A stretch of 64,000 nucleotides of DNA from a bacterium (GCA_965216315.1 CBDCFN010000016.1:2176001-2240000), one strand, 5' to 3'; shown: positions 1,300 to 60,875, counted from the stretch's first letter. Numbers and translations are program-made. The notes: a model not told the origin generated them from the sequence alone.

Positions 1300-1326
1300 T
1301 TATCGGTGTCGATTTGCGAAAGTTGC
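1300..1326 (-). promoter_or_regulatory. sigma-28-like bipartite promoter motif
   Basis: Minus strand GCAACTTT-CGCAAATCGAC-ACCGATAA upstream of family A copy 1; overlapped by inverted repeat TTGCGAA-N12-TTCGCAA (1314-1339). Confidence 0.75.
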
Positions 1327-1433
1327 GGTAAATTCGCAAGGGGCTGACGAAAATTAGAAAAACCGTCCCAAAATTGGCAAGAAACAGGCTCTAGGGGGCC
1401 CTCTCAACCCCCCAGGCCTGCAATTAGAAGTGC

Positions 1434-2756
1434 TTATAAGGGCACGGGAACCGGCGCCATTCGCGGCACCACGACGGGAGCCACGCGCGGCGTAACAACC
1501 GGCGCGACGCGCGGAACCACCACCGGGGCCGGAACCGCCGTTGGGGCGGGCGTCGGGATGGCCGCCGGATTCGCGGCCCGGACCCGACCGGGAACGGTCG
1601 CGGCGACCGAACTGACCCCGCCGAGCTGCATCATCCCGTCAAAGAGCGTATCGGCGGTCCGCGTCGTGCCGGCGGGTGCCGCCGTGGAAGCAGCCGCGTT
1701 ATTGATGCCGCTCGTCAGCGCGGATTGAAAGACACGGGTCCACTGGGCCTGATTCCAGCCCAGCTCACGACCAATGCCATTACGCATGGCCAATTGGGCA
1801 AAGATCGGTGCCGCTGCCTGGGCAAATCCCTCAGGAGTGTAAGAAACATCGGCCAAATGAGCCATCTCGGCAGGCAAGGCCATTTCAACCCCAGCCACTC
1901 GCGCCGTCACGCCGGAAACCGCCGTAAAAGTCGCAACCGGTGCCTCGGAAGCTGGGGTCTCCTCACCGGCCGGGGCCGCTTCGCCGGCTCCCTCCGCTTG
2001 GGGCGCGGCGTCAGCTTGGCCGGGAGCCGCGTGCATCGCAGCCAGGGCGCGGCCGAGCTGTTCCGGTGTCATCTCGATGTTGCCACCGCCACCGCCACTG
2101 CCTCCATTACCATCGCCATTGCCGCCATTGCGGCGGCTTTGGATCCATCTTTTCAGGGCGTGGTAGACATCCGGGCCAATCGTGAAGGCCGCGATCAAGA
2201 AGAAAAACTCGGTGAGATGGTCCTGCTGCGGAGGACGCAAATGTTCCATCGACGTCGCCAAGGCCTCACATTGTTGGTCGGAGAGTCCCGTCGGACATTC
2301 CCCGACAAACCAGCGCGCCGGTGAATAGTTCACATACCAGGGCCGGTTCCCGCGAATATGGCGGATGATTCCCTCACGTACCGCTGGTTGATCGGCGCGG
2401 AGACACAGGGTTCCGGGTCGGCCCGCGTGAGCGGAGAAAGACGCCCGATCTTGCGACATATTGGGGAAAGTTCTGACCACATCGGCAGAGGTATGATTGA
2501 AGGTCGCACCGTTGGGTCCTGAATCGGCAATTTCATAGTACCCTTGACGTGCGTCACAGGATCTCAGGCTCTCGCCGTGAAAGGCGCTCCACGGCTGGTC
2601 GTTAGCAGGCCGGGTCGGATCGGGAACGATGACCCCAGCTTGCGTCATAACGGCGCCGGGGCGACCGTCTCTAGGTCCGTAAGCCGTGCCCGGATTAGCG
2701 CGGCACAGACCGGGCTGCCCTTCCAAATTAGACGCACCATACAGATCGCAAGTCAT
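1434..2756 (-). CDS. Family A protein, copy 2
   Basis: 440 aa: conserved ~180-aa N-domain with 6 Cys, hydrophobic FFFLIAAFTIGPDVY followed by basic residues, Gly linker, Pro/Val-rich tail; RBS AAGGAG. Confidence 0.9.
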   Translation of the reverse strand: MTCDLYGASNLEGQPGLCRANPGTAYGPRDGRPGAVMTQAGVIVPDPTRPANDQPWSAFHGESLRSCDARQGYYEIADSGPNGATFNHTSADVVRTFPNMSQDRASFSAHAGRPGTLCLRADQPAVREGIIRHIRGNRPWYVNYSPARWFVGECPTGLSDQQCEALATSMEHLRPPQQDHLTEFFFLIAAFTIGPDVYHALKRWIQSRRNGGNGDGNGGSGGGGGNIEMTPEQLGRALAAMHAAPGQADAAPQAEGAGEAAPAGEETPASEAPVATFTAVSGVTARVAGVEMALPAEMAHLADVSYTPEGFAQAAAPIFAQLAMRNGIGRELGWNQAQWTRVFQSALTSGINNAAASTAAPAGTTRTADTLFDGMMQLGGVSSVAATVPGRVRAANPAAIPTPAPTAVPAPVVVPRVAPVVTPRVAPVVVPRMAPVPVPL

Positions 2757-2900
2757 AATCGGCTCCTTTTGCCGTCAACGAGGTCGTTGACTAAAAGGAG
2801 GCACTGCCTGGCTTAGGCCTGTTTGATTGATTTGGATAAGGTTTACCCGCGTCATAGTGTGCCTCCGGTTACGGAAGTCCACCATAACAACCCAATGTGG

Positions 2901-2927
2901 TTATCGGCATGGCCTTGCGAAAGTTGC
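2901..2927 (-). promoter_or_regulatory. sigma-28-like bipartite promoter motif
   Basis: GCAACTTT-CGCAAGGCCAT-GCCGATAA (perfect FliA -10); inverted repeat TTGCGAA-N12-TTCGCAA at 2915-2940. Confidence 0.8.
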
Positions 2928-2967
2928 GGGGAATTCGCAAAAGGCTGACGAAAATTGGGAACCGTTG

Positions 2968-3075
2968 TCTCCCCCTTTGTAAAGGGGGACTAAGGGGGAT
3001 TTAAGAGACGTCACGCAAATCCGTCTCTCGGGGTAAATTAAATCCCTCCTAACCTCCCTTTACAAAGGGAGGGAG
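2968..3075. repeat. REP/REPIN-like palindromic doublet (CCCCCTTTGTAAAGGGGG type)
   Basis: 2968-3004 is identical over 37 nt to 34822-34858; inverted partner at 3038-3066 matches 34870-34898. Confidence 0.85.
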
Positions 3076-58496: not shown

Positions 58497-58574
58497 AAAG
58501 GGCCATAGGCTACCTTTAAGGACGCAAGGCGTCAATTAAAGACCCACACTGACCTGATCTGGGGGGAACGAGCT

Positions 58575-60203
58575 CTAATCCGCTTCCGAACCCAAGGCGG
58601 ACTCGGCGGCAGAGAGGAGTGACCCGTCATCGATCAGGGCGCGAACCCGCTCGATATCAGGAGTCATGACCCGATCGCGTTCCATAAACGGAACTTCTGC
58701 CCGAATCCGCTCGTACACGGCTTGGAGCGCGGGACTCGTACGGCGGGGCTTACGAAAATCCAGCCCCTGGGCCGCCGCTAGGAATTCGATCGCCAGGACA
58801 TCACGCACATTGTGTTGGATCGCTTCCAGTTTTATCGCCGCGCGGGCACCCATCGATACATGGTCTTCTTGTCCCGCGGACGTTGGAATCGAGTCGACCG
58901 AGGCCGGATGCGCCAAGCCTTTATTCTCAGAAACCAAAGCCGTCGCCGTCACATGGGCGATCATAAAACCACTGCTGGTTCCCGGATCCGGTGCAAGAAA
59001 AGGCGGGAGACCACTTGCATAACGACCGTTAACAAGTTGTTCAATACGCCGCTCACTGATGTTCGCCAATTCGGCGAGGGCAATCCCGGCATAATCCAGT
59101 GCCAGTGCAATCGGCTGGCCGTGAAAGTTACCGCCTGAAATGACTTCGCCGCTGTTCGCAAATACGAGCGGATTATCCGTTACACTTCTTGTCTCACGTT
59201 CCAGCACCTGTTGCACATGTGTCAACGCATCTCGCGTGGCGCCGTGTACCTGCGGCATACAGCGAAAGGAATAGGGATCTTGTACTTTGTCGCAATCGGC
59301 GTGCGAAGTGATAATCTTGCTGCCTAACAACAAGCGCGTTAAAAATGCGGCTGACGTCATCTGCCCTGGGTGTTGCTTTAAGTGATGAATGCGTGGATCA
59401 AAAGCACTATTGGTTCCTTGATAGGCCTCGAGTGACATCGCACCGGCGATGTCGGCCAAGTTCGCCGTCATCTGGGCATCGTAAACTGCCAGCCCACCCA
59501 CCGCCGTCATGAACTGGGTTCCATTTAACAACGTGAGACCTTCTTTGGCCGCAAGATTCAAAGGGGATAGAGCGGCGGCTTTCAACGCCGCAGCGCCTGT
59601 TAATATCTGCCCTTCATATTCCGCCTGACCTTCCCCAATGAGGACCAGGGCCATATGCGCGAGAGGCGCAAGGTCGCCGGAGGCTCCCACCGATCCCTTG
59701 GAGGGAATAACCGGATGGACCCCTTTGTTGAGCATGTCACATAAAAGATCGCAGACACGGGGACGCGTTCCCGAATGCCCGAGAGCGAGAACCGCTGCGC
59801 GCAACAACATCATCGCCCGCACTTGGTCCGTCCGCAAGGGAGCACCCACACCTGCTGCATGAGAACGCACTAAGTTGACTTGAAGTTCGGCAAGCTCCGC
59901 TGCCGGAATGCGTTTCTGGGCATTTCCCCCGAAACCCGTATTGACTCCATATACCGCGCGGTCCCCCTCCCCACCAGCGACGATATCCTCAATCACGCGA
60001 CGTGAAGCCGCCATTACCGGCGTTGAGATTTCGCTGACGGCCACGGGGACGTGTTCTCGCGCAACTGTCGCCATCGCATCCAAGGTCAAATAAGTTTCAC
60101 CGAGAACAACGCAATCATAAGAGCTTGTTGAGGTCGATTGACTGGCTAAAACTGTCGAAGCCAATCCGATAGACGTACTATTAGCTAAACTAAAAAATGT
60201 CAT
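58575..60203 (-). CDS. hutH: Histidine ammonia-lyase with Ser/Thr-rich N-terminal extension
   Basis: YGVNTGFG, GASGDLAPLAH (MIO), QDPYSFRC.PQ, GGNFHG, QEDHVSMG. Confidence 0.93.
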   Translation of the reverse strand: MTFFSLANSTSIGLASTVLASQSTSTSSYDCVVLGETYLTLDAMATVAREHVPVAVSEISTPVMAASRRVIEDIVAGGEGDRAVYGVNTGFGGNAQKRIPAAELAELQVNLVRSHAAGVGAPLRTDQVRAMMLLRAAVLALGHSGTRPRVCDLLCDMLNKGVHPVIPSKGSVGASGDLAPLAHMALVLIGEGQAEYEGQILTGAAALKAAALSPLNLAAKEGLTLLNGTQFMTAVGGLAVYDAQMTANLADIAGAMSLEAYQGTNSAFDPRIHHLKQHPGQMTSAAFLTRLLLGSKIITSHADCDKVQDPYSFRCMPQVHGATRDALTHVQQVLERETRSVTDNPLVFANSGEVISGGNFHGQPIALALDYAGIALAELANISERRIEQLVNGRYASGLPPFLAPDPGTSSGFMIAHVTATALVSENKGLAHPASVDSIPTSAGQEDHVSMGARAAIKLEAIQHNVRDVLAIEFLAAAQGLDFRKPRRTSPALQAVYERIRAEVPFMERDRVMTPDIERVRALIDDGSLLSAAESALGSEAD

Positions 60204-60230
60204 TGAAAACCCTTCCCTTAATCTTGAAAA

Positions 60231-60842
60231 TTATCGGAATAAATCCAACTGCGGATCCGGCTCGTAAACCCACTCAGAACCGAAACTTTCCCTGAGCGAA
60301 CGGCGCGCAATGTCATAAAAACTGCGGTCATCAAACGGAAAATAAATGACACGCGTATTCCCCGGTGCGGTGGCCCAATGAGTCTGTATATTCGTGAATA
60401 ACCCGATTGAAACGATAGCCGCCATACTAGCGAGACCGAACGAATTGACATCCCAGCGAATCGACGAAAAATTTGTGCATGCATCCCACACCTTTTCTAC
60501 CGCCGCTTCGAGATTTCCTTCCAATGTAGGATCGCTGTAAACACCCAAAAAAAGACGCGTCGGTGTCCCGCTCACTTCACGGAATTTACCCCAACCTTTG
60601 TCAAAGGCTCTTGACCTTACTTCGTGGAAATGCCCGTCATCGTCATCATCGCGAACGTCACTATTAAGCGTTATCTGTAGGTCTATTTCCGCCGTTAAAA
60701 AAGCCTGGCGCGCTGCAAACTGTTCACAGGACCGAGGGTGATAGACGAGTGCCAATGAAGGTCCCGCATTCTGGTTGGCAATTCCAATCGCGAAATGGCT
60801 GAATCCGATGTTCGAAAGCTGTTGGGCCAGGGGCGCAATCAT
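60231..60842 (-). CDS. Hypothetical protein, probably leaderless and co-transcribed with hutH
   Basis: 203-aa ORF; ATG lies 6 nt from the motif -10 box; 27 bp before hutH. Confidence 0.65.
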   Translation of the reverse strand: MIAPLAQQLSNIGFSHFAIGIANQNAGPSLALVYHPRSCEQFAARQAFLTAEIDLQITLNSDVRDDDDDGHFHEVRSRAFDKGWGKFREVSGTPTRLFLGVYSDPTLEGNLEAAVEKVWDACTNFSSIRWDVNSFGLASMAAIVSIGLFTNIQTHWATAPGNTRVIYFPFDDRSFYDIARRSLRESFGSEWVYEPDPQLDLFR

Positions 60843-60848
60843 GCCCGC

Positions 60849-60875
60849 TTATCGACGCGGGCCACAGATAGTTGC
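60849..60875 (-). promoter_or_regulatory. sigma-28-like bipartite promoter motif
   Basis: GCAACTAT-CTGTGGCCCGC-GTCGATAA, same spacing. Confidence 0.65.

Follow-up and report, generated by a model that had tools for sequence, protein, structure and literature searches.

Flagellar-type sigma factors have been re-used for non-flagellar programmes in Bdellovibrio, in Chlamydia and in the WhiG systems, and the same appears to have happened in a bacterium of the uncultured phylum UBA10199. We analyzed a 64,000-nt stretch of its genome (GCA_965216315.1, CBDCFN010000016.1:2176001-2240000; hereafter ‘the window’), in which a first-pass annotation had noted regularly spaced copies of the motif GCAACTTT-N11-VCCGATAA in front of genes. 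The motif is probably the promoter class of a divergent sigma factor of the sigma-28 (FliA/WhiG) family, which is encoded in the same genome within a cluster of type III secretion system (T3SS) genes.

Chlamydial sigma-28 serves late developmental genes in a flagellum-less bacterium with a non-flagellar T3SS, a setting that matches the present one. Its regulon is small and its promoters lie near the E. coli consensus, whereas the set described here comprises approximately 195 genes with an altered -35 box. Streptomyces WhiG, which is controlled by RsiG and cyclic di-GMP, is also a sigma-28-family factor serving a non-motility programme. It is the closest solved relative of the sigma described here (structures 6pfj and 6pfv), but it retains the helix TESRVSQIH, which the present factor does not.

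In Bdellovibrio bacteriovorus, FliA promoters of the form TTAAG-N16-CCGATA are described at 92 of 140 mapped attack-phase starts (Karunker et al. 2013, PMC3627812). Set against that description, the present system is similar in having a sigma-28-type promoter over a large and mostly non-flagellar set of genes, with the same spacing and the CCGATA -10 box, and in the higher G+C content of its regulon genes relative to other genes (here 53.7% versus 50.8%, p 1.6e-20). It differs in that Bdellovibrio is flagellated and uses the canonical-type TTAAG, whereas here the -35 box is GCAAC, the sigma helix is altered, the sigma gene lies in a T3SS cluster and searches of the genome recovered no genes for a filament, rod or hook. 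The class 3 promoters of E. coli, Salmonella and Pseudomonas aeruginosa, as presented in bioRxiv 10.1101/2020.01.02.893370 and PMC12784957, share with the present class the GCCGATAA -10 box, the distance between the boxes and the architecture of the sigma. As in the FliA systems presented there, type III export genes surround the sigma gene; unlike in those FliA/FlgM systems, the -35 box is GCAAC instead of TAAAG, no match to the FlgM family was found in the genome and the targets are not flagellar.

The needleless T3SS* of Myxococcus xanthus (PMC12075869) and the FliO-bearing T3SSs of Myxococcota (PMC12248157), as these articles portray them, resemble the present cluster in being non-flagellar T3SSs with a flagellar-type FliO in ‘delta-proteobacterial’ lineages. 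Relatives of the sigma with the same helix occur in metagenome-assembled genomes (MAGs) labelled Myxococcota. No dedicated sigma-28-type factor or promoter class is reported for Myxococcota T3SSs in those portions of PMC12075869 and PMC12248157 that the literature search covered, and neither a report of that kind nor any description of this promoter or this sigma was found in the open-access literature searched. The present system differs from those of Bdellovibrio, Chlamydia and WhiG in its re-tuned -35 box with a matching helix, and in lying within the gene cluster of a non-flagellar T3SS in a phylum that lacks flagella. Numerous transcripts that are predicted to be leaderless, and orphan targets whose N-termini look like type III secretion (T3S) signals, would set it apart further.

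The motif in the genome and across the phylum

The host genome (2.96 Mb in 16 contigs, estimated to be 98% complete) was searched with a refined weight matrix. At a threshold of at least 16 bits, the matrix matched 222 positions, compared with 9 in the reversed genome, and 195 of the 222 matches sit just upstream of a co-oriented gene. Genes were taken from crude calls of the longest open reading frames (ORFs), by which the genome is 93% coding. By position, 160 matches lie between genes and face the ORF that follows, and a further 26 fall no more than 150 nt into an ORF that was called too long; the remainder are antisense within genes (20), deep intragenic on the sense strand (12) or intergenic but facing away (4). 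Most matches are thus intergenic, although non-coding DNA makes up only 7% of the genome. The genome-wide motif search that the first-pass annotation had proposed therefore returned a strong bias of both orientation and position.

The spacing is narrowly distributed. GCAAC-N16-CGATA occurs 80 times in the genome and 3 times in the control, and spacers of N17, N15 and N14 gave 25, 5 and 13 copies, respectively; 193 sites have the canonical spacer, and 175 of these are promoter-like. The canonical sigma-28 form TAAA-N15-CCGATA was not enriched in the genome (8 copies versus 8 in the control). The genome-wide consensus is (G/a)CAAC(t)TTt-N10-gcCGAtaa, or in the fuller logo (c/a)(G/a)CAAC(t/a)TTt-N10-gcCGAtaa. 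Apart from a weak upstream A/T preference, the spacer and the flanks are unconserved, and therefore the motif is not a repeat element. Sites are found in approximately 13-16% of upstream regions. The preferred spacing is that of TAAAGTTT-N11-GCCGATAA, and the logo gcCGAtaa fits the sigma-28 -10 box, in agreement with the earlier claim that the motif has the same -10 box and spacing as FliA promoters.

We also examined the motif outside the host. In all 61 sampled genomes of the phylum UBA10199, the core pattern occurs at 18-115 copies per genome, with 0-11 in the controls. Its density in the host genome is 27 per Mb, and most genomes of the phylum are far above the E. coli background. In a single-contig genome of another family, 25 of 30 examined matches (36 in total) are promoter-like. 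Five outgroup genomes, drawn from MAGs of other labels that carry a related sigma (see below), were also tested, two of which are clearly enriched (127 versus 7 and 35 versus 1 in the controls). In the better of these, a longer pattern gave 59 copies versus 1, and an ORF of at least 100 codons with high G+C at third codon positions begins within 111 nt of 28 of 30 sites. If the proposed reading is correct, the motif would provide a readable promoter code for the whole phylum, and apparently for some neighbouring lineages too, by which about 200 genes per genome could be assigned to one regulon from sequence alone.

The positions of the start codons are also informative. When only ORFs of at least 100 codons are considered, the first start codon is found 5-10 nt past the motif in 75 of 201 sites, with a peak at 6-7 nt (37 sites), none at 3-4 nt and approximately two per position farther out; ATG is used at 53 of the 62 starts with an offset of 5-9 nt. 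In the open complex of P. aeruginosa sigma-28, as described in PMC12784957, the -10 box GCCGATAA covers positions -15 to -8, so the start-codon pile-up coincides with the predicted +1. The pile-up thus fits a predicted start site at the sigma-28 position and indirectly supports the one foreseen in the first-pass annotation. Transcription would begin about 7 nt past the -10 box, and in about a third of the promoters the start site would be the start codon itself, so that roughly a third of the regulon mRNAs are predicted to be leaderless; the sites at 11328 and 60849 are candidate examples in the window.

A FliA/WhiG-like sigma factor inside a T3SS cluster

The inventory of the sigma-70 family in the genome consists of RpoD, RpoH, one FliA/WhiG-like factor, two extracytoplasmic function (ECF) sigmas and two weak region-4 matches in long ORFs. 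The FliA/WhiG-like gene (C16:350511-351410) encodes a protein of 299 aa, or of 275 aa if translation begins at a later Met. TIGR02479 is the family that it matches best (133 bits), with lower scores for the SigB/F/G, RpoH and ECF models. The factor is single-copy and 56-70% identical in 59 of the 61 sampled phylum genomes, and the other two hold fragments of it (residues 95-247 at 70% identity in G058; two pieces at 70% and 52% in G050), so that the sigma and the motif co-occur in 61 of 61 genomes. Over the whole protein, the nearest solved relatives are WhiG (6pfj, 3e-24), P. aeruginosa FliA (9wsf, 7e-22) and E. coli FliA (6pmi, 4e-21). Region 4 alone is nearest to E. coli FliA (6pmi, 1.4e-5) and WhiG (1.6e-5), with no ECF chain among the stronger matches. 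The idea that region 4 is a graft from an ECF sigma was rejected, because region 4 taken alone is still closest to FliA and WhiG. The sigma also has about 25-55 additional residues at its N-terminus, Lys-rich and poorly conserved, for which E. coli FliA has no counterpart.

The helix that reads the -35 box is LGLSKSWTSRLH in this sigma and is near-invariant in the lineage; E. coli FliA has LEVGESRVSQLH. The helix core of region 4.2 is KSWTSRLH here versus ESRVSQLH in FliA, and wherever the recognition helix departs from FliA and WhiG, the lineage conserves its own residue; this includes the counterparts of residues known to touch the -35 box in sigma-28 of E. coli and P. aeruginosa. The SRLH of this core is also found in the helix of one of the genome's own ECF sigmas, ECF1 (GTVKSRLHYAR). 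ECF sigmas read AAC-type -35 boxes, which would give a rationale for GCAAC. According to bioRxiv 10.1101/2020.01.02.893370, K208 and R220 of E. coli FliA contact -35 phosphates, and PMC12784957 assigns to Q228 of P. aeruginosa sigma-28 a base-specific -35 contact that is required for activity. In the present sigma, K208 is replaced by E, R220 by W, and E. coli Q223 (P. aeruginosa Q228) by R, while the Ser equivalent to P. aeruginosa S224 is retained. The E. coli -10 contact residues R58, R74, T69 and R84 are retained as well. The search for FliA/WhiG paralogues and the inspection of region 4.2, both proposed in the first-pass annotation, thus yielded exactly one such sigma with a helix altered relative to FliA and WhiG, and its proposal of a FliA/WhiG-family sigma with an altered region 4 is supported.

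The statistics, placement, orientation and conservation of the motif, and the presence, sequence and gene context of the sigma, are direct observations; from them we infer that this sigma reads the motif, including GCAAC directly, as well as where transcription would start and when the regulon would be expressed. In the proposed mechanism, region 2 would still recognise the CGATAA -10 box of the family, and region 4.2, changed from ESRVSQLH to KSWTSRLH with its ECF-like SRLH, would read GCAAC at -34 to -30 in place of TAAAG, with the spacing unchanged from sigma-28 promoters. This would be a natural case of a sigma-28 factor that acquired a new -35 specificity through three substitutions in its recognition helix, with no change in the -10 box or the spacing.

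Relatives of the sigma, 36-47% identical, are found in MAGs labelled Myxococcota, Myxococcales, Bdellovibrionales and Schekmanbacteria. The helix LGLSKSW(T/V/A)SRLH is kept in 17 of 29 loci of this second tier, namely those in which the search pattern captured region 4.2.

The sigma gene lies within a T3SS cluster (G000:C16:339083-360514). The cluster begins with SctV, a SctD of the FHA/YscD type, a TPR protein, SctJ and two small ORFs; the sigma gene is followed by a 162-aa inner-rod-like ORF, a FliG-like gene, SctL, SctN, SctO, a FliK/HpaP-like gene, FliM- and FliN-like genes, FliO, and SctR, SctS and SctT. Domain matches in the cluster include FHIPEP (SctV), YscJ/FliF (SctJ), FliH/SctL, the ATPase, YscO, FliP, FliQ and FliR, and FlhB/SctU is encoded away from the cluster. 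No flagellin (PF00669) and no rod/hook domain (PF06429) was found in the genome, nor was there a match to FlgM (PF04316) at E 0.1 in this assembly. The export apparatus, the ATPase complex, SctJ, SctD and SctQ are therefore present without filament, hook or rod genes, as expected of a non-flagellar T3SS. Parts of the injectisome type (the FHA/YscD-type SctD, a YscO-like protein and a short SctJ) thus stand in the cluster beside parts of the flagellar type (FliO and the FliG- and FliM-like proteins), and a 989-aa secretin ORF is located at C16:974670. A flagellar-type sigma tied to a non-flagellar T3SS in a bacterium without flagella would bear on the evolution of the injectisome from the flagellum, regulation included.

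This arrangement recurs in other genomes. The local order of SctJ, the orf151 family, a divergent disordered ORF, the sigma, a SctI-like gene and a FliG-like gene is found repeatedly, and the sigma and the FliG-like gene occur together in 11 of 11 loci from other families. In those loci, SctJ was detected in 7 by tblastn, and phmmer detected an ORF for the SctJ C-terminus in every one of the 11. Of 51 further loci, for which only 1-kb flanks were available, 36 show the FliG-like gene, and a homolog of the TPR protein of the cluster precedes the sigma in 14 of the 29 second-tier loci. In the host, a copy of the motif with one additional nucleotide of spacing (C16:347331-347358) is located 26 nt upstream of the operon to which the sigma gene belongs, a position that allows possible autoregulation.

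The disordered ORF directly upstream of the sigma (G000:C16:350010-350369) is 94-120 aa long across counterpart loci. Its N-terminal half is rich in Ser, Gly, Pro and Ala, and a single amphipathic helix follows a D-P motif. Between families it is nearly unalignable (mean column identity 22%), while its position is constant. Co-folding of the sigma alignment with this ORF family gave a median score of 0.47, with one control at 0.42, and counts neither way.

The putative regulon and competing explanations

The regulon comprises 195 target genes, which encode mostly lineage-specific proteins; most would be fast-evolving and would lack a Sec signal. The target proteins are longer than the others (median 364 aa versus 278 aa), and a hydrophobic N-terminus is present in 13% of them versus 31% of other genes. 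In a scan of 72 targets, which were taken from the densest stretches and are not a random sample, 55 had no Pfam family at 1e-6, compared with 21 of 72 random non-target neighbours, and none of the 72 was a flagellar protein. The annotated targets include RibBA, RtcB, an S8 protease, SLT and LysM proteins, two DUF4423 regulators, a Ser/Thr kinase, a cyclase-STAND protein, a glutamate dehydrogenase and an amidase. A 717-aa target that adjoins the T3SS was found in 1 of 61 genomes; judged from this case and from a window paralog family with five copies, the targets are fast-evolving.

The N-termini of the target proteins are unusual. Charged residues make up 9.9% of positions 2-30, 18.6% of positions 31-60 and 22.7% of the rest, compared with 21-25% throughout in non-targets, and 62% of targets versus 21% of other genes have at most two charged residues in positions 2-25. 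Ser (1.58x) and Thr (1.45x) are enriched in this region, as are Gln and Asn, whereas Lys (0.31x) and Glu (0.46x) are depleted. T3S signals, as characterized in Arnold et al. 2009 (PMC2669295), are N-terminal stretches of 25-30 residues that are rich in Ser, Thr and Pro and poor in acidic and basic residues. Because their N-termini are uncharged and rich in Ser and Thr, the targets may be secretion substrates. Contrary to that description, Leu (1.12x) and Ala (1.38x) are not depleted, which speaks against this interpretation, and we regard it as rather doubtful that the regulon is largely a programme of T3SS substrates. Many orphan proteins can be put forward in this way as candidates for secretion. 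Past residue 30, the targets use less Lys (0.60x) and Cys (0.56x) and more Arg (1.22x).

A broader scenario can be put forward tentatively, and we consider it possible but not likely. The T3SS would have kept the ‘late-substrate’ logic of the flagellum: a sigma-28 descendant of its own, with its gene flanked by sctJ on one side and the inner-rod-like and FliG-like genes on the other, would activate about 200 genes for proteins with N-termini resembling T3S signals, which the machine would export; many of the mRNAs would be leaderless. The machine, in which SctD is combined with FliG-, FliM- and FliO-like parts, would in that case represent a living form midway from flagellum to injectisome that serves a predatory or host-associated lifestyle in UBA10199 and in some relatives labelled Myxococcota or Bdellovibrionales. 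A secreted FlgM-like anti-sigma, perhaps the upstream disordered ORF, would couple expression to secretion.

Several observations weigh against assigning the motif to the sigma-28-like factor. The matrix was refined on its own hits, so the score threshold accounts for part of the invariance of AAC and CGA in the logo. In E. coli K-12, a genome without this type of sigma, there are 24 copies versus 9 in the control (5.2 per Mb), and the reversed-sequence control understates the background, so ratios up to about 3 are no evidence of enrichment. The lowest densities within the phylum (approximately 8-10 per Mb) are only modestly above that of E. coli, and the other three outgroup genomes, at 4.9, 1.6 and 1.5 per Mb, do not exceed it. 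The sigma's score for TIGR02479 is below the curated cut-off of 189.6 (NCBIfam). Some E. coli -10 contacts are changed (Q73 to Y, R94 to Y, R95 to A and R98 to K) despite the same -10 box, and residue-level reasoning about contacts is therefore loose. Lastly, the combination of an AAC-type -35 box with a -10 box that contains CG, at a distance of about 16 nt, resembles ECF promoters.

This resemblance, together with the presence of two ECF-type sigmas and the SRLH that the ECF1 helix shares with the sigma-28-like helix, raises the question of whether one of the two ECF sigmas reads the motif instead. We consider this improbable. At E 1e-10, ECF1 was matched in 23 and ECF2 in 34 of the 61 genomes, with few matches above about 37% identity, whereas the enriched motif and the sigma-28-like factor are present in all 61, and neither ECF had a match in several genomes that carry 40-87 copies of the motif. 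In its complete form, CCGATAA, the -10 box is that of sigma-28, not the CGT type of ECF promoters. The likeness to ECF (group 4) systems is thus confined to the AAC core of the -35 box and the SRLH-containing helix; unlike an ECF sigma, the factor has a region 4 nearest to FliA and WhiG, a CGATAA -10 box and 275-299 aa with sigma-28-like regions. It is also quite improbable that the two-part motif is no promoter but an operator bound by a transcription factor, such as a DUF4423/TIGR02147 regulator, many of which are encoded in the genome. Although two DUF4423 genes are among the targets, the motif is asymmetric, has a rigid 16-nt gap and is strictly gene-facing; its second half equals the sigma-28 -10 box, start codons cluster where +1 is expected, and it is kept across a whole phylum that carries the matching sigma.

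The remaining alternatives concern the origin and the generality of the promoters. The window copies could be relics of tandem duplication, in which a promoter was copied with each paralog and has no wider meaning. Indeed, five of the window targets are 53-74% identical and have extended promoter identity, and other targets share domains. This explanation has very little probability, given that the 222 genome sites precede mostly unrelated genes with unconserved flanks and that the motif is enriched in 61 of 61 sampled genomes; duplication is refuted as a full explanation and is valid just for the extra identity among the five window sites. Similarly, the class is large, at 13-16% of upstream regions, as might be expected if the motif were the housekeeping promoter of the lineage, read by RpoD. 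That idea is hardly credible, however, as the motif was not found before tricarboxylic acid (TCA) cycle, heme or other core genes in the window, and RpoD retains the canonical region 4.2 helix VTRERIRQIE. Moreover, boxes of the sigma-70 type precede 9 of 157 targets versus 9 in the reversed control, which is no enrichment, whereas they precede 162 of 1062 other genes versus 102. We therefore favor the sigma-28-like factor as the reader of the motif.

Motif copies and genes in the 64-kb window

A pattern search of the window gave 5 exact matches to GCAACTTT-N11-VCCGATAA, compared with 0.00 expected, and 13 matches with up to three mismatches, compared with 1.34 expected and at most 4 in any of 100 shuffles. 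The first-pass annotation had listed 12 intergenic copies with equal spacing; every one was recovered in the set with up to three mismatches. These 12 sites score 20.8-28.3 bits with the weight matrix, and all are intergenic and co-oriented with the adjacent ORF, 6-145 nt before its longest start.

Five of the sites, all on the minus strand, precede members of a paralogous family: 1300-1326 (27.2 bits; gene 2-1195), 2901-2927 (28.3 bits; gene 1434-2756), 4161-4187 (26.6 bits; gene 3101-4090), 5483-5509 (24.6 bits; gene 4319-5422) and 9651-9677 (23.2 bits; gene 8333-9613, together with a 906-aa gene at 5585-8305). These five paralogs are 53-74% identical, and because of this kinship their sites have extra promoter identity (CGAATTT..CC upstream and CGCAA in the spacer). 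A weak C-terminal domain is common to six further window targets, and three targets are paralogs with thrombospondin type 3 (TSP3) repeats. The earlier statement that the motif precedes non-paralogous genes thus holds only in part for the window, although its consequence, that duplication alone cannot account for the motif, is upheld by the counts in the genome and the phylum. All copies of the five-member tandem orphan family are on the minus strand and are conserved over an N-terminal segment, C-D/E/N-L-Y-G-A-S ... L-C-R-A-N-P-G-T-A-Y-G. Only its five copies, all on the large contig of this genome, turned up when 5.8 billion proteins were searched, and the 440-aa member had no usable match in the protein atlas. 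N-myristoylation of the ‘MGC’ start of these proteins was considered and rejected, as Gly2 varies among the five copies.

Further sites on the minus strand are found at 11328-11354 (23.3 bits), a leaderless candidate in which the start codon of gene 10525-11322 is 5 nt past the site; at 13875-13901 (20.8 bits), before an 812-aa FHA-domain gene (11393-13831); at 17385-17411 (23.2 bits), before a 1131-aa gene (13908-17303); at 21023-21049 (24.2 bits), before a 1124-aa gene (17563-20937); and at 25489-25515 (21.5 bits), before genes 23360-25381 and 21158-23242. On the plus strand, the site at 29941-29967 (26.7 bits) precedes the TSP3-repeat genes 30007-32403 and 32430-33326. A weaker plus-strand site at 25812-25838 (18.3 bits, with the -10 box CGACGA), which the first-pass annotation had not listed, precedes a 1288-aa TSP3-repeat gene (25890-29756). 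The three motif-driven TSP3-repeat proteins (25890-33326, plus strand) have clear Sec signal peptides, and therefore the regulon is not limited to signal-less proteins. The first 33 kb of the window (2-33326) form an island of 16 target-operon genes, 12 of which have no Pfam family. Its G+C content is 52-60%, compared with 46-56% in the remainder of the window.

The motif had been said not to precede TCA, heme or glp genes, and this holds for intergenic sites between 33 and 60 kb. The minus-strand site at 60849-60875 (22.9 bits), however, heads a string of tightly packed co-directional genes that continues into aromatic-lyase and glycerol-3-phosphate-dehydrogenase-like genes. This site is the second leaderless candidate, as the start codon of gene 60231-60842 is 6 nt past it. 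The copy with one additional nucleotide of spacing that had been noted at 39748 does exist (39748-39775, minus strand, 18.1 bits), but it is not a gene promoter as annotated, because it sits in the gap that separates the ferrochelatase stop from the convergent hemD-hemE gene and faces the 3' end of the latter; it could be either a chance match or a promoter of an antisense or small RNA. The only site of at least 16 bits in the housekeeping half of the window is a 16.3-bit match on the sense strand inside the aconitase gene (35691-35717, minus strand), and it belongs to the small number of intragenic matches. The hemD-hemE gene itself (37628-39655, plus strand) is a single 675-aa ORF that fuses uroporphyrinogen-III synthase (HEM4) and uroporphyrinogen decarboxylase (URO-D) domains.

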